Source: Patescibacteria group bacterium (lineage in GTDB: Bacteria > Patescibacteriota > Patescibacteriia > PEXW01). Taken from it: 64,000 nt of DNA. The translations under genes were made by a program, and so were the position numbers. Numbering within the stretch: the stretch's first letter is position 1; the number at the start of each line of letters is the position of its first letter. This document shows, piece after piece, positions 101 to 10,690 of this stretch. The notes below the pieces were generated by a model. It had not been told where the DNA came from. It worked only from the letters and a program-made list of their open reading frames with translations, and searched no databases. Location of the stretch: assembly GCA_041671325.1 (NCBI GenBank), contig JBAZBR010000002.1:137978-201977 (forward strand), in the 5' to 3' direction.

Positions 101-976
101 TCATATAAGATGGCGCTTGACCATCTCCACGACCGCGTCAGGCGAAAGGCTGGAGCCTATACCTTGAGGCGATCCAATTCTGGTGGAACTGCCGCCCCAA
201 TCAGGTTCATGGGCTTGCAGTTGCATAACCAATGTATCCATGCTTATGAACCCTTTGTGGTATTGGCAAATTGAAAATTTGCTTTTACCATTCGGGCCAA
301 TGGGATAGTGCACCACTACGACGGGTGCTAAATAATAAGCCAATGAAACCAGGCCTGGGTTGTCGCCAATAGCTGTGGCGATTTTGCCATTAGCCATGGT
401 TCTAAGCGGCAATTTTCCATCCCTAATGTCACGCAACATTATGTAGCTTGCCCAATAGACTTTATCACGGTAATCCGGCGGCTCTTCGGCAGTTTCAAGC
501 CAGGCTTGCATGTGTATTACCCGTTGATCAACCGAAAGGTGGTTATTATTGCAAACCGCTGACATAACCGTAAATGGGCTAGGTTCTGGATTGTTTTCAG
601 GCAATGACCGGGGACCCGGCCATTGTCCGACTTCAAACCTGTCCCTTTTGGCAACGTAAGTGACACGCGACAGGATCCCATTTTTCATTTTGGTTCCGGT
701 GGCGCGCATTTTCAACACAGCCATGGCGCCAAAAGCATCGCAGTCTGGTCGGATAGTAACCAGGATTGTGCCATCGGGCGGCAAAGGAAATTCCAGAGCG
801 GCTTCAATGGCCGCTAGGTCAATATTCTGGCCAGTGTGCTGGGGGTCGATATTCCCCAGGCCGCAGTGTCTAGCCAGCCAAGGGACTGTCACTTCAATAC
901 CCAAAGTCTTTAGACCCAGGAGGCCCTGGTTTCGATTTTCACCGGGCCGGGGATCAAGCAGGGCAAAACGATACAT
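101..976 (-). CDS. hypothetical protein, 291 aa, in the GC-richer 5' segment
   Basis: Long ORF with coding-like composition; no family recognised. Confidence 0.45.
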   Translation of the reverse strand: MYRFALLDPRPGENRNQGLLGLKTLGIEVTVPWLARHCGLGNIDPQHTGQNIDLAAIEAALEFPLPPDGTILVTIRPDCDAFGAMAVLKMRATGTKMKNGILSRVTYVAKRDRFEVGQWPGPRSLPENNPEPSPFTVMSAVCNNNHLSVDQRVIHMQAWLETAEEPPDYRDKVYWASYIMLRDIRDGKLPLRTMANGKIATAIGDNPGLVSLAYYLAPVVVVHYPIGPNGKSKFSICQYHKGFISMDTLVMQLQAHEPDWGGSSTRIGSPQGIGSSLSPDAVVEMVKRHLI

Positions 977-1102
977 TTATTCTCCTTTCCGGTGTGCCGG
1001 GGTTTTGGTTTTTATTTCACTTTTGAACCGGCAATAAAATTACAGGCTCGAAAGTGAAAGGGAAGCCAGCTTATTGATGCTGGCTTCCCTGTTCTGAAAT
1101 TG

Positions 1103-1828
1103 CTAAGCGGCGGCTGTTGCAGTCGCTTCGGTCGCCGGGGCTTGGTATGTTACATTCGCCGAAACCGTTTTTTCGTCGGCCCTGGATCGGTAAATGCCGT
1201 GGCCGCCGCGAGGCCACTCATCGGCAAAGCCGATGAATTTCACATTGTTGACGACGTGCCCTTTTTCTTCCAGGTACGGGCCCGTCACCGTAACCGTTCC
1301 GATCACTTCCACTTTGGGACGATCTTCCGACTTGCGATGGACGGTCTTGCGATACTGGTTGCCCAGTACCACGAAATCGAATTCAATCCCGCCGATCCGG
1401 AGTTTTCCTTTCTCGGCACAAACACCGTTTTTCAGTAGGTAGGACTCCACCATCTTCGTCCAGGTTGCCCTGGATTTCTTTTTGGCGGCTTCGGCTTCAG
1501 CCTTTTCCTTCCGGCAATACGACGGCCAGAATGGGGTGAATTCCTCGGAAAAGCCGAAGGGAAGACCATACCTCCCATTGCGGTTTCCCGGATGGGTCTT
1601 TTTCCACTGCTCCAACGCGCAGTAGATGCAGATGGCTTTGCCGTCGGAACCGGCCCAGAAGGCCGAGGTTTTTGTCACAACGCCAGATTCGTCGAAAACC
1701 GCCTGGGAGTTTTCAAATTCCCAATGGATTGCTCCATTGGCTTCGGAGGTGAAAGGCTTGCCTTTCTTCTCCGCCATGAAGCAGTGCTCCCCATTGGCAC
1801 AGATGATCTTGGTTCTTTCGGTGAACAT
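1103..1828 (-). CDS. hypothetical Cys-containing protein, 241 aa
   Basis: Start placed at MFTERTK, preceded by a strong SD (AAGGAGGAACTT-ATG); the 269-aa track ORF extends upstream without an RBS. Confidence 0.5.
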   Translation of the reverse strand: MFTERTKIICANGEHCFMAEKKGKPFTSEANGAIHWEFENSQAVFDESGVVTKTSAFWAGSDGKAICIYCALEQWKKTHPGNRNGRYGLPFGFSEEFTPFWPSYCRKEKAEAEAAKKKSRATWTKMVESYLLKNGVCAEKGKLRIGGIEFDFVVLGNQYRKTVHRKSEDRPKVEVIGTVTVTGPYLEEKGHVVNNVKFIGFADEWPRGGHGIYRSRADEKTVSANVTYQAPATEATATAAA

Positions 1829-1999
1829 AAGTTCCTCCTTGTTTTTGCCAAATTTTTTGGCATTTTGTGTTTGGTTTATTTCTGGTTTTCTGTTTTTTCT
1901 CTTTTTAACCAACCATTTTTTTTAATGCTTGGTTAAAAAAAGAAGAGGAGCAACGACTTGAACGTTTACTCCTTTCTTCAAGGTACGCTCACTCTGATT

Positions 2000-2353
2000 T
2001 TAGTCATTCACGATAGCCACGAAGATTATATCCTCGCGCCAGCCGTGTTCAGGTTCGGCGTTGGGGGTTTGCCATTCAGATCCTTTTTCATCCACAATCA
2101 GCGCATTGGCGTGAAGCACGCCAATTTCGACTGGCGATCCGAGGGCAACCACCACTCCGCTTGAAACGGTCTCCTTGAAAACTCCAAGTTGGCTCAGTTT
2201 AACCAACTCGGAAAATTTCATTGGCCGCATGTGCCTTTTCCACATATCCATTATCACCTCGGTAGTGGACATGTATTGATTATAGGTGATAAAGACGATC
2301 GACTGGGCAATTTCGCCCAGCATCACGTTTTCAAACATTTTCAACGTAATCAT
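2000..2353 (-). CDS. hypothetical protein, about 117 aa
   Basis: Start placed at MITLKMF with SD GGGAG; no recognisable family. Confidence 0.4.
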   Translation of the reverse strand: MITLKMFENVMLGEIAQSIVFITYNQYMSTTEVIMDMWKRHMRPMKFSELVKLSQLGVFKETVSSGVVVALGSPVEIGVLHANALIVDEKGSEWQTPNAEPEHGWREDIIFVAIVND

Positions 2354-2472
2354 CGCATCTCCCTTTTCTGTTTGTTGTTTTTTCTTCTTCCAAACCATAA
2401 TTTTCATTCTGAATTGGAAGAAGAAGAGGAGCGAATCAGGTGATCCGCTTCAATTCCTAAAGGTGCAGGCGA

Positions 2473-3054
2473 CTAGATATTCACATTGACGTTCAAACGA
2501 ACGTCATAACCCCGGTCGCCCAAATACCAACCGAGTTGGAATTTATCATATCCGATTCGGGCGCCAAACTGGGCGCTGGTCTTGCCGATCCGACAGGCTT
2601 CAACCTGCGGACCGAACCAGAAAGCCTTGTCTCCTTTGTCGGTATGAATGGTGTAGTTGATGTCCACACCCGACCAGAAATACTGCTCCGAGTGGGTGTT
2701 GAACATATTATCAACCTCCGTTGACCAGATACACCGACCGAAAGGCACGTCAGTCATGAAACCGACGAAAAAGGGATCTTTCCCTGCCCAGTTCATGGCA
2801 ATGCCACCGTCCAGAGTCAAAATCCCCTTATTGGCGCCGGCATAGCAGAACAGTTGGTTGAATCCTTTCATCGGAACACTGAAGACGCTTGCCTTCAATA
2901 AGCTGTTCCATCCACTGCCAAAGTCCAGTGGCTGGAGTTTGAAGTTGACCAGAAGCTGGCCACCTTGATTGGTGGACCAGCTCGGGGTCTGGGCGAAGGT
3001 GGTGCCGACAAAAGCCAGCACGACAACAACGGTAATCATCATTGACTTAAACAT
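2473..3054 (-). CDS. secreted beta-rich protein, possibly outer-membrane/porin-like
   Basis: N-terminal signal peptide (MFKSMMITVVVVLAFVGTTFA-QT). The body has alternating aromatic/Gly-rich strands typical of beta-barrels. Confidence 0.4.
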   Translation of the reverse strand: MFKSMMITVVVVLAFVGTTFAQTPSWSTNQGGQLLVNFKLQPLDFGSGWNSLLKASVFSVPMKGFNQLFCYAGANKGILTLDGGIAMNWAGKDPFFVGFMTDVPFGRCIWSTEVDNMFNTHSEQYFWSGVDINYTIHTDKGDKAFWFGPQVEACRIGKTSAQFGARIGYDKFQLGWYLGDRGYDVRLNVNVNI

Positions 3055-3197
3055 TTGGTTCTCCTTGCCACTTCTTGTGGCGGTTGGATTATGATTTAGT
3101 TTTTTATTTCTTTTTTCACTCTTAAGCCTGCGAAAGGTTCACAGATTTAAGAGTGAAGAGGAGCGGATCGAATTAAACGACCCGCTCCCGTGATACT

Positions 3198-3404
3198 TTA
3201 ACGCACGGCCATAACCCGGTATACCAAACGGCGGCAACCGATCGTGCCTTCGAGGGTAATGAGGGTTGCCGCACAAATGAACAGGACACCAGTAGCCAAC
3301 ATGCGCCAAGCGATCGTAGCCTCAGCCTGATTGCTTACTAAGACGAGTAGGCCACCGGTAATCGCCATGAGCGTCGCAGCAACTACATAAAACCATTGTT
3401 TCAT
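3198..3404 (-). CDS. small membrane protein, 68 aa, 2 predicted TM helices
   Basis: SD GGAGGA immediately upstream; hydrophobic helices. Confidence 0.45.
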   Translation of the reverse strand: MKQWFYVVAATLMAITGGLLVLVSNQAEATIAWRMLATGVLFICAATLITLEGTIGCRRLVYRVMAVR

Positions 3405-3559
3405 ATATCCTCCACAGTGTTTATTTTCTTCTTTCAGGCCACAATCTTGTTAATTTTGGACTAGGAGAAGTGCAGGAGGTTTTGGGGTAAGGTACTCCTG
3501 CGGAGGAACCTTCTGCTGTTTTTCAAGCACTGAGGTTTTTCTAAAAAACGTAATTTTGC

Positions 3560-3622
3560 TGTGCGGATGAGGGATCGAACCTCAACACCCCCTTTATTGG
3601 GGGGCAGCAACCATGCCCGCAC
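3560..3622 (-). pseudogene. tRNA-like 3' fragment (acceptor, anticodon arm and T arm; D arm truncated)
   Basis: Minus-strand sequence GTGCGGG...CCCCC-CAATAAA-GGGGG...TGAGG-TTCGATC-CCTCA-TCCGCAC-A. The acceptor stem pairs 7/7 and the T loop is TTCGATC. Only 11 nt lie between the acceptor and the anticodon stem, and A33 is non-canonical, so it is probably a non-functional remnant. Confidence 0.3.
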
Positions 3623-4008
3623 ATGCTTTTTGGTTTTATTCCCCTTCTTTAATCAACAAGGTTTAATGATTGTCGATTAAAGAAGAGCGGGGAGACAGGG
3701 TCTCCCCGAAAAAGAATTTAGTTCGTGGCTAGTGACTTAGTCACGTGGTTTGGCCAATTCATGCCAAACCGATGCCGAGCCACGCGTCTGGCATCGGGTT
3801 CTCTGTCGAATGGTTTTTCGACCCCATCGACTATCCACACGTTATGAGCAAAATTCGCGAGTTTCATATCATCCCCCAAGGGTTTATGGTTTATTTTAAT
3901 TTTCCACATTTCACAGGACAAATTGCTTTATCCAGTAAAATGTGGGGAAGGGCGAGTTTTGAAGTCGTCCTTCCAGAAAGCGCTTTTGCGAGGTTTTTCT
4001 AAAATAGG

Positions 4009-4203
4009 TCAGCCCCGCAGCCTGTTTATCTGGTTATTCAGGCCAAACCAGACGGGGGTAAGTACGTTTTCAAATATTGCACATGCTAACACGAAAACTA
4101 TGCCCCCGATCATGTAAATGCATGCGATACAAGCCACGAGAATAAATACATACATCGTGGCAAGCGAAATCATGTTCCATATGTTGATAATCATCGTTTC
4201 CAT
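4009..4203 (-). CDS. small hydrophobic membrane protein, 64 aa
   Basis: Start at METMIINIW with SD AGGGAG. It is preceded on its own strand by conserved structured leader copy 1. Confidence 0.45.
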   Translation of the reverse strand: METMIINIWNMISLATMYVFILVACIACIYMIGGIVFVLACAIFENVLTPVWFGLNNQINRLRG

Positions 4204-4265
4204 TTTTACTCCCTGCCTATTCACGCTTTTGCGGAATAGGACTTTGTTTTATTATTTTTCCCACT

Positions 4266-4342
4266 GATCTGGAGGTGAGAAGTTTTTTGCATGAAAGCTT
4301 TGGACCGAAGTCCGCTTTCAAATGGAAGTTAAGTAAATCTTC
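4266..4342 (-). promoter_or_regulatory. conserved structured 5' leader element, copy 1
   Basis: The minus-sense RNA has an outer stem GAAAGC/GCTTTC enclosing GGAC-UUCG-GUCC, then the conserved TCTCACCTCCAGAT (anti-SD). Stems co-vary with copy 2. Confidence 0.45.
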
Positions 4343-4526
4343 GATGAGTTCAACCCCGATACCAGAATCGCTTGCGCAATTCGGTACGGGGCAGGCCCAT
4401 CTTGATTCCTTATGACTTCCGCTTCTCCTTAAACCCTAGAGACGTTTTAAGATCTTTAGAATTTAGCCCCTCCATATCAGTAAGAAAATTCTCGTCTCGA
4501 ACGACGATCTCACTTATGTCATCGTT

Positions 4527-4584
4527 CGGGACGAAAGCAGAGTTTAAGAAAATGTGAAATTTTCAGGGTACTCTGCAAACCTTA
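4527..4584. repeat. 58-bp direct repeat just 3' of a small membrane-protein gene, copy 1
   Basis: CGGGACGAAAGCAGAGTTTAAGAAAATGTGAAATTTTCAGGGTACTCTGCAAACCTTA. A second copy lies at 4938-4995 with 2 mismatches. A GCAGAG/CTCTGC stem encloses the A/T-rich loop. Confidence 0.6.
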
Positions 4585-4596
4585 GCTTGTTTGGTG

Positions 4597-4872
4597 CTAA
4601 TGCGTCATCGGTTTGGCTAACCCCCAGCCAAACCCAAAGAAGATACTGAGAACAATGAAGTAGCCAACGATGTATTGCATGGCTAATGCCATCATTTTCT
4701 CAGCGGGTACTCCTGTAACCGCAATCAATGAGAACATCCCTGTGAAACCCAGTGAAAACCCACAAGCTTCTTTGAATCTGTTGAATTGGCGTATGCCTGA
4801 TATGCCCAGGACCACTCCAAAGATCATTTGGGCAAAGAAAACCACGGCTAAAGTGGTCATATAAAACGACAT
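4597..4872 (-). CDS. membrane protein, 91 aa
   Basis: Hydrophobic ORF followed by the 3' direct repeat. Confidence 0.45.
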   Translation of the reverse strand: MSFYMTTLAVVFFAQMIFGVVLGISGIRQFNRFKEACGFSLGFTGMFSLIAVTGVPAEKMMALAMQYIVGYFIVLSIFFGFGWGLAKPMTH

Positions 4873-4937
4873 GTTACACCCCTATACTTTAAAGTTATTT
4901 CTTTCTCATCTCGAGTAACCTTTTGATAAAGATTAAT

Positions 4938-4995
4938 CGGGACGAAAGCAGAGTTTAAGAAAATGTGAAATTTTCAGGTACTCTGCGAAACCTTA
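4938..4995. repeat. 58-bp direct repeat, copy 2
   Basis: Near-identical to 4527-4584. Confidence 0.6.
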
Positions 4996-5002
4996 TTGTC
5001 GT

Positions 5003-5206
5003 TTATCTGGCGTATGCACCGACTACCGCACTAATTACCAGAACCACGATGGATAGGCCAAGTCTTATCCATCTCTCTTTTTTATTGCCCTCAATCGCAA
5101 CCACGATTGAGATGCAGGCCATGAGGGAAGCCATGCTAAGGCCTTCCATGTAGTGGCCGACCAGAAAGCCACTAATAAACAAAGCCACCATTGATATGAT
5201 TTTCAT
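5003..5206 (-). CDS. small membrane protein, 67 aa, 2 TM helices
   Basis: SD GGAGGA; preceded by leader copy 2 and followed by 3' repeat copy 2. Confidence 0.45.
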   Translation of the reverse strand: MKIISMVALFISGFLVGHYMEGLSMASLMACISIVVAIEGNKKERWIRLGLSIVVLVISAVVGAYAR

Positions 5207-5238
5207 TTCAATCCTCCTTCAGTTTTTTCCTTTTATCA

Positions 5239-5322
5239 ATCTGGAGGTGAGACTTTTAAAGCGCTTTAGGCCGAAGCCCGCGCTTGAGCGAAAGTTAAGT
5301 ATCTTTGCAGGGAAGCTCCCTG
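5239..5322 (-). promoter_or_regulatory. conserved structured 5' leader element, copy 2
   Basis: Outer stem AGCGC/GCGCT enclosing GGC-UUCG-GCC, the conserved TCTCACCTCCAGAT, and a CAGGG-AGCTT-CCCTG hairpin. Covariation with copy 1 preserves the pairing. Confidence 0.45.
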
Positions 5323-5400
5323 CGCGATACCGCTCTTTCGGTATATTCGCCTCCAAGTTGATAAAAAGAATTGTCAAAGGTCTTATGCGTTTTGTATCCA

Positions 5401-5455
5401 CAGATTTGGAGAGTCTTTGGTGCTAAAGCTTATGGCCGAAGCCCTGCCTTAGCCA
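5401..5455 (-). promoter_or_regulatory. partial, degenerate third copy of the leader element
   Basis: Contains a GGCTTCGGCC hairpin and a degraded anti-SD-like segment. Confidence 0.25.
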
Positions 5456-6106
5456 GTTGGTCCAATTATCTTTGGCGAGTAAACCCGCCGCGATACTGTT
5501 GCCAACCTTATTGCCCTCCCCTCCAAATCACTAGATATAAATTCACCAAACCAATCTTGGAAAAAACAATTTATTCTCCGTAGCTTACTATCCTCCTTTC
5601 TTGCCTGGTCCCTAGCTTTACTAGCGGATTGCGTAGGAGAATAAAAAACGAGGTCCTCTGTTGAGAGAGCACCTTTATTGGATACCAAATAAATTGGCTT
5701 TTTCACTTGTCTGCTCTCTCTTTCAAACAAGTGACAAAACATGTAATTTATTAGTTTTTCAACCTAACAAAGCAGTATATATCAAGCAGGGAATACTGTC
5801 AAGACCAAGAATGGCTTAGATTAGCCAAAATGGCTAAGGTTAGCCAAAAAATACCCCCTCGGCCTTGGGCCACTCCCCCTTGGCAAGGGGGAGAAATCTT
5901 GCTTAAAATATGAAAGATTGCTTCGGTCGTTCCACTTCTGCGGGGCTCCCTCGCAAAGGCAGATAAAAAAAGTTTGGCCTTGTTAAATCCTACTTGAAAT
6001 AAAAATGGTCTTGAACTAAGTTAATCTTAGAAATCAAACCTTAAGTGTTCTTTTTACATTTTAAAGGTTGAGAAAACCACTAAAGCCATAATAACTGGAG
6101 GATGGT

Positions 6107-6955
6107 ATGAAATTCGTGAAGTGTTTAGCGTTTGTCGCGAGCCTTGCATTCTTAGGACTTGCTTGTTCCGAGAAAGTAATTGATCCACAGCCTATTGATT
6201 GCGATTTAGCCTGCCAGATTGCCAAGTCGCCTTTCCCAAACGCGGAGGCTGAAAACGTGGCAAGATATCTGGATGGGTGGTTGGTCGCTTCGGAAATAAC
6301 TTACAAAAAATGTTCAATGGCATTAACCCAGTGGCGGAGACAGTACACGCCAACCGATACTGCCTGGTGCGTCGATATCTCCGAAGGCGGCGGTAACCAT
6401 TATTATCTTAATCCAACCTCAGTGAAGTTTTTTGATCCAGGCACGCCAGGTAGGTTCGAATGGTATTTTTCCGCCGATTCATTCAATCTGGGTTTCCCCA
6501 ATGACACTGTCTTAACAGCCGGCCAAACGACTAATAATCCCGTTTGGGATTCGCTAAATAGTCTTTATCGACTAGATAGCCTGCGTATCAAACATTACCC
6601 GAAGATGAAAATAGTTTTCATCCGTAACTATTTTCACGGTCGGTTGGATTCCAAAATGCTATGCCAAGCATACGATGTTTTATCTGGGGTTGAAACGTGC
6701 ATATACCAGCCGGCAATTATCGGTGGCATAAGTAACCTTTACCCAGGTTTGGATTCGAATGGCCTGAAAATCTTAGTGATTATCGGCTGGGGAGATTGCC
6801 CGTCTGGATGCATGTACAATGCCTACGTCTATTTTAAACAAAAGTCTGATGGAACCTTTGATTTTCTGGGTAAGTGGATATCAAGTTCTAGCTTGCCTAA
6901 ACCCCCATGGTGGTCAGAAGCTTTTGCTTTAAGAGAGGCTTGGAGTAATTATTAA
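6107..6955 (+). CDS. secreted lipoprotein, 282 aa
   Basis: Signal peptide with lipobox LGLA-C; SD GGAGGA. Confidence 0.6.
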   Translation: MKFVKCLAFVASLAFLGLACSEKVIDPQPIDCDLACQIAKSPFPNAEAENVARYLDGWLVASEITYKKCSMALTQWRRQYTPTDTAWCVDISEGGGNHYYLNPTSVKFFDPGTPGRFEWYFSADSFNLGFPNDTVLTAGQTTNNPVWDSLNSLYRLDSLRIKHYPKMKIVFIRNYFHGRLDSKMLCQAYDVLSGVETCIYQPAIIGGISNLYPGLDSNGLKILVIIGWGDCPSGCMYNAYVYFKQKSDGTFDFLGKWISSSSLPKPPWWSEAFALREAWSNY

Positions 6956-7203: not shown

Positions 7204-7761
7204 TTAAATAGCTTTATTTTTCCGGCTATTCTGCAGACTATAGATACAGCCGCAATAATCCTGCCGATAAAAGTCATTTTGCCGGCTGATAGCCATGGCC
7301 TTTTTAAAGCCGTCACGTTTTTTAAAATCCGCTTCCAGGTATTTTAAGCTATAAAGTTTTGCCAAATGCTTGCCAATTTCGTTAAGTTTCTTGGCATCTT
7401 TATGCGGACTGATGGAAAGGTCAGTGCCGAAAACCTCGAAGGAATGGTTTTTGGCATATTCTGCGGTCTTGGCCAGGCGCATTTCATAGCAAAGCCAACA
7501 GCGCTTGCCTCGTTCTGGTTCTTGTTCAAAACCTTTGATTTTTGCAAACCAAGCGTCTTGGTCAGGTTTTTCCTCTACAAATGGGATTTTATTAATTTGG
7601 CAATATTTCTGGATTTCTAAAAATCGTTTTTCATACTCTTCCAAAGGGTAAATATTTGGATTGTAATAATAGGCAGTCACTTCATAATTATTTTTTAACA
7701 AATCCAAAACATAGGCGCCGCAAGTGGCACAACAGACATGGAGAAGTAATTTGGGTTTCAT
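7204..7761 (-). CDS. queH: epoxyqueuosine reductase QueH (DUF208)
   Basis: Start at MKPKLLLHVCCATCG, the characteristic CCAxC motif near the N-terminus. Length about 185 aa; conserved C-terminal Cys residues. Confidence 0.75.
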   Translation of the reverse strand: MKPKLLLHVCCATCGAYVLDLLKNNYEVTAYYYNPNIYPLEEYEKRFLEIQKYCQINKIPFVEEKPDQDAWFAKIKGFEQEPERGKRCWLCYEMRLAKTAEYAKNHSFEVFGTDLSISPHKDAKKLNEIGKHLAKLYSLKYLEADFKKRDGFKKAMAISRQNDFYRQDYCGCIYSLQNSRKNKAI

Positions 7762-7992
7762 GTTTATTAATATAGTGGATATTAATAATAATGACAAAAA
7801 ATTTATATTGAAGTTTAACCACCTCTTGGGCAGGAGGTGGAAGCGGAGGAGACTCAAAAGGATTCTCCAATAATGTCGTCTTTGTCGTTATTCATTTCTT
7901 AATTCATATACCCTCAGGGGGAACAATTGACAGTGTACCTGTCCACAATTACCCTTAAGGTATACAAAAATGACCTTTGCAAAGGAGTAACT

Positions 7993-8256
7993 GTGAGTTG
8001 GAAGCGATTCTTCTTTGTTGCAAGCCTATTTTGGTCGGCATTCTTTTCTTTGGCCCTCATAGGTTCGCAATTAATCTTCGTCGTGTCACCTCTATCGTCT
8101 GGGACACCTCCTTGGTCCGTTGCGATCGGGGTCATGTGTTGGATGGCGCCCCTAAGCGGTGTCACGATTGGAGGAGTTATGACGATCCTCTTTTTCCTCT
8201 TCCCCTTTCTGGAAAAACGGTTAAACAAAACACCTCAGCTAGAGTTACCTCTTTGA
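7993..8256 (+). CDS. small membrane protein, GTG start
   Basis: AAAGGAG-N5-GTG; hydrophobic ORF followed by a hairpin terminator. Confidence 0.4.
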   Translation: MSWKRFFFVASLFWSAFFSLALIGSQLIFVVSPLSSGTPPWSVAIGVMCWMAPLSGVTIGGVMTILFFLFPFLEKRLNKTPQLELPL

Positions 8257-8263
8257 TCTTCTG

Positions 8264-8293
8264 AAAGCTCGCGAAAGATCGCGAGCTTTTGTT
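8264..8293 (+). terminator. intrinsic terminator
   Basis: AGCTCGCGA-AAGA-TCGCGAGCT (9-bp stem) followed by TTTT. Confidence 0.6.
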
Positions 8294-8525
8294 ATTGCGA
8301 GGGCCGTACTCGGCCAAAAGAAGTCATGTCTCCACCCCCCCCGCCTGCCTCCCGTCCAACCGCTTCGCGCTCGAAACGGGCGGGCCGCCTAATACTCGGT
8401 AATGGTGGGCAGGAGTATCGTTATGGTTGTAGGTTTTGGTTAAGAATTCCTCAAGGCCACGCCTCTTTACGATACAGAGATCTATGCCTAAACCTTATAG
8501 TCACAACCATTTTTTGAAGTGGGCA

Positions 8526-9323
8526 TTAGGTAGCAGTTGGAACAGCCGAGAGGGTTTTTGTTAAGTAGGCAAGGGGTGAAGCGAAGATTTCGGGTGAGGA
8601 AAATCTGACACAGAATTCACTCACGTATTCAGGAAGGTGTTGGGCTGTACTGTGATGATACATTCTACGGATGAAGGCGCGAAGATTACCGAACATGCCT
8701 TCAATTTCCGAGGTTAAGCCAAACTCAAATCGTTTGTGGATGTCCCGACGGTGCGTAACGGGCCACCAGTGTTGAATGCCTTGGTATATTGCACCCCCAT
8801 CGGTCTGTAAGCGGGAACGGGGTTGAATATTTTGGAATAGAAACTGGGCAGCATCCCGTCGATCCACCGAGGACTTAGGCAGGGTCTGGTGGACGATGTT
8901 CCGGCTGCCAACCTGCTTGGCCATGAGCAGCGACAAGGAACGAAAGTAGGCTTCGTCCATTTGCACCGTACCCTGCAGAATAGGCTGTATTTCCGGCACC
9001 TGGAGGCGGAATGCTTGGAACCATAGGCGGACGGTTTTCTCATTGACGTGACAGAGCTTCTGGGTCTGGAGAACCGGCACAGCCTGAGTCCAACACCACA
9101 GCAAGCACCACCAAGTACGAAGAGAAAGCTTCATGCCTTCGAGCCAAGTACCAGAGAACAGTGTGAAGGGAAGCCGACATTGGGCACAGCGGTATCGATC
9201 TTCGGAGACATACACCTTCCGGGAATGACACCTGGGACAGAACAGGTTTTTACCAAAGCGAAGACGACGAACAACCTTACGGATCTTGGCTTCCGAGGGA
9301 ATTTGATGCAGAAGAGAAATCAT
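8526..9323 (-). CDS. IS1595-family (ISXO2-like) DDE transposase
   Basis: CPRCHS...YRCAQC zinc ribbon plus a DEAYF motif. Confidence 0.75.
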   Translation of the reverse strand: MISLLHQIPSEAKIRKVVRRLRFGKNLFCPRCHSRKVYVSEDRYRCAQCRLPFTLFSGTWLEGMKLSLRTWWCLLWCWTQAVPVLQTQKLCHVNEKTVRLWFQAFRLQVPEIQPILQGTVQMDEAYFRSLSLLMAKQVGSRNIVHQTLPKSSVDRRDAAQFLFQNIQPRSRLQTDGGAIYQGIQHWWPVTHRRDIHKRFEFGLTSEIEGMFGNLRAFIRRMYHHSTAQHLPEYVSEFCVRFSSPEIFASPLAYLTKTLSAVPTAT

Positions 9324-9685: not shown

Positions 9686-10486
9686 ATGAAAAATCCAAAA
9701 GCCATCACTATTATCGTTACAATTTTCGCCTGTCTGATGATCGGCACAGGAATCTTTGTGTTAAAAAAAGATGCGATACAAGCCAGGTTTTTTTCTGACC
9801 AGCCCACTGAATTGCCCCAAGCCATAGATGTTGCTCAATCACAGGCAGAAAATACATCAGACACTGGTCAAGTTTTAGGTGAGAAAGTGAATGTGGCCGC
9901 AACCAAACTTCCCAGCCAATTCAATTTAGCCGTGCCTTTTGTCTTGCAAGCCCCAACAGCTAATTGGGATGCAGTACACAATGAAACTTGCGAAGAAGCC
10001 GCGGCTTTGACCGTGCATTATTATTGGACCAAGGTTAAGAACCCGACTGCAAGCCAGATTGAAACCCAATTTACTAAATTAATAAAATACCAGAACAAGA
10101 AATTTGGCGATTACAAAGATACAACCGCGGCCCAAACCGCGCAATTCATTAAAGATGTTTGGGGTTATAAAAAAGTTGAAGTTTTGCCGATTAAATCCTG
10201 GAATGATATCAAAGTCCAGGTTAAAGCTGGCCGGCCGGTTATTTTACCCACGGCTGGCAAATTATTGAAAAATCCCAATTTCAAGAATGGTGGGCCAAAA
10301 TATCATAACCTAGTTGTCAGGGGCTGGTTGGCTGATGGCCGGATAATTACCAATGATCCAGGCACCCGAAAAGGCAATGGTTATGTTTATAAGCCCCAAA
10401 TTCTGTGGAATGCCATCCATGACTGGAATAGCGGCGATATTTTGAACGGCAAAAAAGTCATGATAGTGGTATATCCGAATAAATAA
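9686..10486 (+). CDS. membrane-anchored peptidase C39-like domain protein
   Basis: N-terminal TM helix; NETCEEAAALTVHYYW resembles the catalytic Cys region of Peptidase_C39_2. Confidence 0.55.
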   Translation: MKNPKAITIIVTIFACLMIGTGIFVLKKDAIQARFFSDQPTELPQAIDVAQSQAENTSDTGQVLGEKVNVAATKLPSQFNLAVPFVLQAPTANWDAVHNETCEEAAALTVHYYWTKVKNPTASQIETQFTKLIKYQNKKFGDYKDTTAAQTAQFIKDVWGYKKVEVLPIKSWNDIKVQVKAGRPVILPTAGKLLKNPNFKNGGPKYHNLVVRGWLADGRIITNDPGTRKGNGYVYKPQILWNAIHDWNSGDILNGKKVMIVVYPNK

Positions 10487-10516: not shown

Positions 10517-10690
10517 CCCTCTCCTGTTAGGAGAGGGTACGCGCCCGCCCGCCTTCGCAGACGAAGTACGGTGGGCAGGAAGCGAGGGCGAGGTTTCATT
10601 GCCTGTTACTGGGAAACTAATTTCTAAACTAAAAAATCCCTCACCCGGCCCCGCGGCCGCGGGGCCACCCTCTCCCAGAGGGAGAGGGGG
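10517..10690. repeat. GC-rich palindromic intergenic repeat (class 2)
   Basis: CCCTCTCC-TGTTA-GGAGAGGG, GGCCCCGCGGCCGCGGGGCC and CCCTCTCCC-AGA-GGGAGAGGG palindromes. Confidence 0.7.

Follow-up and report, generated by a model that had tools for sequence, protein, structure and literature searches.

We analyzed 64,000 nt of DNA from a Patescibacteria group bacterium (contig JBAZBR010000002.1 of assembly GCA_041671325.1, positions 137,978 to 201,977; hereafter the window) and found three copies of a structured RNA domain, which we name the E element, beside small open reading frames (ORFs). All relevant features of the locus lie on the minus strand of the window. Homologs of the three copies, A, B, and C, occur in at least nine other Patescibacteria loci (given L numbers below), most often directly after the DUF4012 gene of a polysaccharide cluster. 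That E elements constitute a previously uncatalogued, widespread family of sense-strand structured RNA domains is well supported. As to function, we favor, with less than even confidence, a new cis-acting post-transcriptional element built on a clamp between a mimic of the Shine-Dalgarno (SD) sequence and an anti-SD strand.

An earlier description of this DNA, made from the letters alone (the sequence-only reading), had reported two full copies and one partial copy of a structured leader. The presence of three copies was borne out: a degenerate pattern had its only matches within the 64 kb at 4267-4341, 5239-5305, and 5404-5472, none of 100 shuffled sequences contained any match, and TCTCACCTCCAGAT recurs exactly at 4267-4280 and 5239-5252. 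Their extent had to be redrawn; only the 3′ part of each element had been caught. A repeat finder showed that a block of A at 5227-5250 is complementary over 24 nt to 5347-5370, 96 nt upstream, and that C is built likewise, and the 5′ arms of the closing helices lie 100-200 nt upstream of the 3′ arms. Complete elements measure 144-235 nt in the window and 140-235 nt across the family. The supposedly partial copy at 5401-5455 is helix P3 and the 3′ arm of element C, which is complete (53 bits, E = 3e-12, with an ortholog in L002). A scan for long helices anchored by GGAG...CUCC gave no additional copies in the window.

Folded as single sequences, A, B, and C share a common architecture in which P1 is a long closing helix, P2 a long arm that contains a hairpin, and P3 a helix capped by UUCG; B adds two extra insertions. 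The predicted energies of A, B, and C are -69.7, -113.5, and -62.0 kcal/mol, with z-scores against shuffles of -6.8, -8.6, and -5.2. Each of 17 copies from nine loci folds on its own into P1/(P1a)/P2/P3/(P4). The domain is a multi-helix junction made up of P1, P2 with two conserved internal loops (GAGCGGUAUCGCG ... CAAAGACACUUAACC), P3 with its UUCG cap, AAA bulge, and conserved motif GGGCUUCGGUCCAAAGC, and optional P1a and P4. The outer stem and UUCG-capped inner stem with compensatory differences that the sequence-only reading had pointed out are real and correspond to P3.

P1 is ~20 bp long (20-25 bp, nearly perfect) and consists of 18 modeled pairs plus 2-7 extra ones (P1b). At its core, an SD-identical UGGAGG in the 5′ arm is paired with a strand of the 3′ arm identical to the 3′ end of 16S rRNA (CACCUCCA). 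The six pairs of UGGAGG/CCUCCA are essentially invariant in 15 of 15 full-length sequences (in two of them the last pair is G-U instead of G-C); the outer pairs of P1, unlike this box, covary freely. A 1x1 mismatch lies on the outer side of the box (A·G, or C·A in elements of the E2 type), and a bulged A precedes CCUCC on the other side. The arm sequence has been kept where the interior is replaced or reduced, as at L007 561-649 (89 nt), in E2 of L009, and in the C-type element of L017, which argues for a function of P1 independent of the interior; the latter appears to be accessory or regulatory.

Seven copies, aligned with MAFFT, served to build a covariance model. A, B, and C scored 115, 66.7, and 53 bits, and sense-strand scores of the model were 115-185 bits versus 20-31 bits for the antisense strand. 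In a 16-sequence alignment, 93.9% of pair cells were standard pairs, compared with 73.4% in shuffled and 36-51% in slid controls. Both sides had changed in 46 of the 63 pairs, the covariation score was 0.465 versus 0.151, and none of 500 shuffles reached any of the observed measures. A covariance-model alignment is biased toward the modeled structure, and this counts against the fold; the objection is partly met by the individual folds and by a MAFFT-only alignment, in which 94.4% of cells were paired (84.6% when shuffled, 38-48% when slid) and 20 pairs had double-sided changes. There were 88 G-U or U-G cells and 16 A-C or C-A cells, an excess that assigns the fold to the mRNA-sense strand. 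The E element is a real fold under selection on the sense strand. Selection on sense-strand RNA structure ahead of mostly hydrophobic small ORFs, as proposed earlier, therefore stands, and the covariation persisted when homologs were added. The possibility that the repeat encodes a small protein on the plus strand was rejected; its SD overlaps the start codon, the ORF running through E1 and E2 of L005 is unconserved, and the G-U covariation fits the minus strand.

Homologs were found by pattern and by synteny. A metagenome scan with a strict DNA pattern gave one close relative, L002, and a scan of GTDB species genomes gave true homologs in L003, L004 (Kerfeldbacteria), L005, L007, L009, L012, and L013, together with four further matches due to chance. 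A DUF4012-type protein of 718-743 aa is encoded upstream of the locus in L004, L005, L009, L012, and L013 (the domain was confirmed by Pfam for L012 and L004), and its gene follows glycosyltransferase and Wzz-like genes. Using DUF4012 as a synteny anchor added the E-bearing loci L017/L018 (Kerfeldbacteria CG08), L019/L020, and L022/L023; E elements were absent at the DUF4012 anchors of the relatives L015, L021, L024, L025, and L026. The lipoprotein neighbor of the locus in the window has a sole homolog, in L014, where no E element accompanies it, and the E patterns gave no matches in viral contigs. A search of Rfam, the check suggested by the sequence-only reading, matched no family to the element: Rfam 15 at gathering thresholds returned only two unrelated tRNAs in the window and one in L003 from the window and the homologous loci, and permissive searches gave no plausible match at E <= 10 over 3400-6100 or at E <= 5 over L013 5400-7200. 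The literature on RNA elements of Patescibacteria (the candidate phyla radiation, CPR), on their small membrane proteins, and on DUF4012 contained no description of the E element.

The copies are old. C has an ortholog at L002 961-1109 with compensatory changes in P1, P2, and P2b, B has orthologs at L002 1129-1325 and L017 7828-8026, and the window copies share 77-84% identity with orthologs elsewhere. Between genomes, E1 copies reach 86% identity, compared with 67% nucleotide identity of the DUF4012 gene beside them. Element A shares 77% identity with the E2 elements of L005 and L013 and 49-61% with B and C of its own locus; the copies are thus old paralog types rather than recent duplicates. 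We also rejected derivation from a miniature inverted-repeat transposable element or an insertion sequence (IS), given only three copies in the 64 kb, all at one locus and in one orientation, with 49-61% mutual identity versus 77-84% to orthologs.

The locus itself varies. In the distant relatives L024 and L025, DUF4012 is directly followed by MurJ and LepA, and in L018 the E locus and several small genes of unknown function lie between DUF4012 and MurJ. From the adjacency of DUF4012 and MurJ elsewhere, the E locus acts like a variable island that occupies one fixed site. L002 and L017, collinear with the window in other respects, lack its block A-ORF1-R1-ORF2-R2 (5370-4490; R modules are described below); the junctions are at ..AAUU. 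In architecture and sequence, this block resembles the E2-ORF-R units of another clade, a likeness that suggests gain or loss of a cassette.

The E elements belong to one promoter-driven, heavily structured transcript that frames the small ORFs and also carries a leader, R hairpins, and a tRNA-like end (Table 1). L002 and L017 carry the same promoter. The leader resembles an attenuator. Its loop box is kept in L002, L005, L009, L012, L013, L017, and L018 and is complementary to the 5′ half of the terminator-like stem downstream; RNAalifold favors this long-range pairing, whose strands are invariant and hence show no covariation. The leader would then switch between its local hairpin and the pairing with the terminator stem. 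A boxA-like antitermination site in the leader was rejected, since the likeness is not kept across loci. The TTGACAAYT box occurs once in every E-bearing locus, on the sense strand, just past the first E element or the first cassette; it resembles a -35 hexamer, and we rejected it as an internal promoter for want of a -10 hexamer at workable spacing in any locus. At the far end, the minimum-free-energy fold of the tRNA-like module is cloverleaf-like (z = -3.0). Analogous modules lie at L002 1765-1865 (ending in CCAGCCACCA), L017 ~8240-8335, L012 (reverse) ~7900-7995, and L013 6967-7060. Neither ARAGORN nor the Rfam tRNA and tmRNA models called the module, ARAGORN returning only two unrelated tRNAs from the window.

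Table 1. Features of the small-ORF transcript in the window, in transcript order (TM, transmembrane)
Feature	Position	Strand	Remarks
Promoter TTGACA-17 nt-TATACT	5802-5774	-	11/12 consensus positions; top promoter-like site within 3300-6200
Attenuator-like leader	5738-5640	-	Hairpin 5738-5699, invariant loop GAAAGAGAGAGC
Terminator-like hairpin of leader	5673-5652	-	Followed by U-run 5651-5640
E element C	5540-5392	-	P1 arms 5537-5519 and 5413-5395; 3′ arm CUCUCCAAAUC; z = -5.2; 53 bits
TTGACAATT box (TTGACAAYT)	5377-5369	-	Between C and A
E element A (E2 type)	5370-5227	-	P1 arms 5369-5347 (..AUCAACUUGGAGGCGA) and 5250-5228 (UCACCUCCAGAUUGAU..)
Inner helices of A	P2/P2a/P2b 5340-5289; P3 5285-5259	-	Predicted fold
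SD AAGGAGG and ORF1	SD 5219-5213; ORF1 5206-5003	-	67 aa, 2 TM-like segments
R module 1	4998-4893	-	Repeat 4937-4995; conserved box UCGAGAUGAG at 4914-4905
ORF2	4872-4597	-	91 aa, 3 TM-like segments
R module 2	4592-4480	-	Repeat 4526-4590; box UCGAGACGAG at 4500-4491; inner hairpin, then AAUUUUCUU
E element B	4489-4255	-	P1 arms 4488-4469 and 4276-4256; extra P1a hairpin, enlarged P2b
ORF3	4203-4009	-	64 aa, 2 TM-like segments, SD AGGGAG
Two 3′ hairpins closing the small-ORF block	3974-3904	-	Both kept in L002 and L017
Terminator-like site	3708-3688	-	
tRNA-like terminal module	3623-3560	-	Acceptor-like stem and GGUUCGAUCC T-arm

The direct repeat of ~58 nt that the sequence-only reading had placed 3′ of two of the genes is present (4526-4567 and 4937-4978 are identical over 42 nt, the likeness extending to ~58 nt). 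It is part of a sense-strand intercistronic hairpin module, R, with the lower stem CUYAUCUCGR/YUCGAGAUGAG and the box UCGAGAYGAG. R modules also occur in L005, L007 (twice), L009, L012, and L013 and are absent from the closest relatives, L002 and L017. A further hairpin module, H (CUUCCC..[hairpin]..GGGUGAGGGAAG), lies between E1 and E2 or past the last small ORF in L012 (reverse, ~7290-7400), L009 (reverse, ~6700-6750 and 7395-7445), and L003 (2105-2160 and 2830-2890).

In all 11 series of E elements that we examined, the last element is followed by an SD and a small ORF. ORF1, ORF2, and ORF3 are hydrophobic, as had been noted, and have two or three TM-like segments. Across all loci, the small ORFs carried as cargo (40-119 aa in the other loci) are hydrophobic with one to four TM-like segments in 13 of 18 cases and soluble and basic in the remaining 5. 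Pfam, NCBIfam, and PHROGs gave no family match for ORF1-3, their neighbors, or the cargo ORFs of other loci. Searched against 1.84 billion representatives, ORF1 matched only itself, and the only database match of ORF2 was the same protein of this metagenome-assembled genome; by these comparisons, ORF1 and ORF2 are orphans. The ENA record calls ORF1 as a gene. The ENA gene caller skipped the hydrophobic ORF3 and called a 63-aa soluble ORF at 3718-3909 that starts inside a 3′ hairpin. The ribosome-binding site (RBS) of ORF3 has the context CAGGGAG-N-AAAAAUG, which is kept in L017.

How the element might act turns on its invariant box. The sequence-only reading had the anti-SD block sequester the RBS downstream; in fact, the block (CACCUCCAGAU) is the 3′ strand of P1 and pairs with the invariant UGGAGG in 15 of 15 full-length homologs. 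Several observations weigh against any reading, ours included, in which the block governs the SD. The duplexes of cognate P1 arms are calculated at -24 to -31 kcal/mol and those of block and SD at -7 to -15 kcal/mol, so that the clamp is 2-4 times more stable, and the block is complementary to the real SD over a core of only 4-5 nt. Over 14 E-to-ORF junctions folded in full context, the SD is predicted to be unpaired with a probability of 0.07-0.92, and deletion of the 5′ arm is predicted to lower SD accessibility at some junctions and raise it at others. The SD lies between 8 and 171 nt past the element. In every series the first element (C in the window, E1 in other loci) carries the block with no ORF behind it, and the mismatch and bulged A of P1 could equally mark a recognition site for a protein or an RNase. 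Given the weak pairing of block and SD, the erratic accessibility, the variable spacing, and the copies without an ORF, sequestration of the SD at equilibrium is not supported by these models; it would be possible only with the 5′ arm removed or occupied.

Nevertheless, an exact pairing of SD and 16S 3′-end sequences that stays invariant within an otherwise freely covarying helix is difficult to attribute to coincidence, and it suggests that one or both strands are single-stranded at some point. A single-stranded phase of this kind points to a translational gate or insulator whose state would be set by the integrity or occupancy of the 5′ arm. The element would act in cis, after transcription, and its target would be the small ORF behind the last E of a series. 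With the clamp closed, the anti-SD strand would be neutralized and the A-rich RBS, 8-45 nt further downstream, kept available, and the domain may also insulate or stabilize the message. Were the 5′ arm removed, occupied, or as yet unpaired, CACCUCC would be released and able to pair with either the RBS or the UGGAGG of the next element; such a "slipped" pairing between the 3′ arm of one element and the 5′ arm of the next is calculated at -10 to -13 kcal/mol. The conserved interior would serve as a binding platform for a factor that sets the state of the clamp.

A close rival, which we regard as quite possible, takes P1 for a processing stalk of the RNase III type that cuts the polycistronic transcript into stable monocistronic mRNAs and frees the E interior as a stable RNA. 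The nearly perfect 20-25 bp of P1, formed by sequences 100-200 nt apart, answer to such a stalk, as do the persistence of P1 where the interior is replaced and the tandem and intercistronic placement of the elements. The highly conserved interior would suit a functional excised RNA. Additional signals for processing or stability would be provided by other conserved modules on the same transcript, namely the R hairpins, the 3′ hairpins, and the tRNA-like end. Known RNase III stalks, such as the stems flanking rRNA operons and the sites in T7 early mRNA, likewise consist of a helix of about two turns between distant flanks that encloses a structured RNA; they likewise punctuate a polycistronic transcript that carries a tRNA-like unit. 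P1 has the ~20 bp or more expected of such a stalk, joins the flanks of a structured unit, and takes leader and intercistronic positions in a polycistronic transcript. Unlike those stalks, E has a sequence-invariant helix core, encloses a unit of only 100-190 nt, and has cleavage that is putative. Processing leaves the exact SD/anti-SD core of P1 unexplained, and the sequence rules of RNase III are too weak for the sequence to give a test of cleavage.

A broader and more speculative reading, to which we give a minor share of our confidence, is that the locus represents a new genetic organization, an "RNA-framed" variable island in which an unchanging set of conserved, structured RNA modules would both punctuate and control fast-turnover cassettes of orphan small proteins and in which E is a new RNA class. 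The modules may be the attenuator leader, the SD/anti-SD-clamped E domains, the R hairpins, and the tRNA-like terminus, and E may function as a ribozyme, as a switch that binds a factor or ligand, or as the RNA of an excised ribonucleoprotein.

The sequence-only reading had offered a riboswitch-like cis-regulator, and one part of that idea stands, for E is a conserved, covarying, aptamer-like fold on the sense strand of a 5′ untranslated region (UTR). In a classical ligand-sensing riboswitch, possibly a tandem one, the interior would be the aptamer and P1 with the anti-SD the expression platform. The complex junction, the conserved nucleotides of the internal loops (GAGCGGUAUCGCG / CAAAGACACUUAACC), the AAA bulge of P3, the strong covariation, and the variable length of the peripheral stems all recall riboswitches, as does the position of the domain upstream of an RBS, and tandem arrangements occur among riboswitches. 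Unlike them, E is closed by a very long, stable P1 (~20 bp, ~-27 kcal/mol) with an invariant SD/anti-SD core, a helix of non-switching appearance that needs no ligand to form. There is no competing terminator after P1, and we found no consistent SD-sequestering fold, alternative fold, or other expression platform coupled to P1. The downstream genes are incoherent, sharing no family, often orphans, and in part soluble; copies without an interior keep their arms; and Rfam gave no match. The riboswitch is therefore doubtful, and in its classical form we consider it unlikely.

We think it improbable that E, R, and the TTGACAAYT box are boundaries of recombination, that is, sites of homology at which small-ORF cassettes are swapped within the variable island. 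The absence of A-ORF1-R1-ORF2-R2 and of R modules from L002 and L017, the greater likeness of A to the E2 of another clade than to B and C, the orphan ORFs set between conserved frames, and the position between DUF4012 and MurJ, neighbors in other lineages, all fit such swapping. The G-U-rich covariation of one strand favors selection on an RNA fold over a DNA site. Integron-type core sites (RYYYAAC/GTTRRRY) are missing at the arm ends, and the pattern was not found in viral contigs. Among the genes called within 10 kb on either side, we found no recombinase Pfam domain apart from an IS1595 transposase, the only mobile-element gene, which lies ~3 kb off and in the window only; the rest of the window was not screened. 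Integron attC arrays are the nearest likeness, with variable and often orphan small ORFs between imperfect inverted repeats, structure kept over sequence, and cassette content that differs between close relatives. E differs from them in standing upstream of the ORFs without core sites or a nearby integrase, in its conserved interiors, and in its RNA-type G-U covariation. We rejected attC, as the arm ends (..AUCAACUUGGAGG / CCUCCAGAUUGAU.. and ..CGAUAUGGAGG / CCUCCAGAUCG..) lack R″/R′ core sites and a single ACUUAAC lies inside P2, away from the ends of the element.

A new class of self-cleaving ribozyme that processes the transcript seems very improbable. Twister-sister, pistol, and hatchet were found from features like those seen here (a compact, covarying multi-stem junction with invariant unpaired nucleotides, tandem copies, and neighbors of unknown function); E has no similarity to the ribozyme families of Rfam, and interior-less copies are retained. 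Least probable of all are tandem type I toxin-antitoxin loci, the other proposal of the sequence-only reading. Like the leaders of hok, AapA1, TisB, and Fst, the E-bearing leaders are long and structured, show long-range pairing, contain CCUCC-type sequences, precede small hydrophobic ORFs, and are flanked by local repeats. Unlike in those systems, the anti-SD pairs with an upstream SD mimic and not with the true SD, which is not consistently sequestered in the predicted folds. The layout is polycistronic, with one sense promoter and no detectable antisense gene; we found no promoter-like site on the plus strand over 3900-5500, which covers the ORFs, leaders, and repeats, with the limit that weak or non-canonical promoters could escape such a search. 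The ~58-nt repeat, which had been read as a flanking RNA element of such loci, is a conserved sense-strand hairpin module and not an evident antisense gene. Type I toxins are typically shorter than 60 aa with one TM segment; the ORFs here have 64-91 aa and two or three, a difference that may tell against such toxins, as may the 5 of 18 cargo ORFs that are soluble and basic. Finally, the STAB-SD stabilizers of Bacillus (e.g., cryIIIA) also place a perfect SD-like GGAGG far upstream of the start codon in a 5′ UTR; in E this GGAGG is locked in a duplex of ~-27 kcal/mol and predicted to be unavailable to the 30S subunit: all predicted folds have UGGAGG paired, as do 15 of 15 aligned sequences.

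Beyond the E locus, the same strand of the window encodes downstream (101-3404, minus) a series of small secreted or membrane proteins of 68, 193, 135, 269, and 291 aa that could not be annotated, and then an S26 signal peptidase; in L017 and L022, too, the E locus is succeeded by a comparable series of small genes of unknown function. On the other side lie QueH (7204-7857, minus) and, ~3-5 kb from the locus, an IS1595-family transposase (8526-9323, minus) and a Peptidase_C39_2 protein (9686-10486, plus). A long inverted repeat of CCCTCTCC/GGAGAGGG units at 10530-10675 is unrelated to the E elements.

Patescibacteria account for a large share of bacterial diversity, and to our knowledge almost nothing is known of RNA-based regulation in them. 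The E RNA (140-235 nt) is conserved beyond its neighboring protein gene, covaries strongly, and has no Rfam entry; the covariance model provides a tool with which to search for it. Its design is unusual, with an exact SD:anti-SD duplex fixed in the closing helix of a complex fold that is repeated in tandem, and the roles among which to decide include a translational gate, a processing stalk, and a binding site that mimics the ribosome. The placement of orphan small membrane proteins beside an envelope polysaccharide cluster suggests a fast-evolving surface or membrane function, which may be relevant to the epibiotic lifestyle of Patescibacteria.

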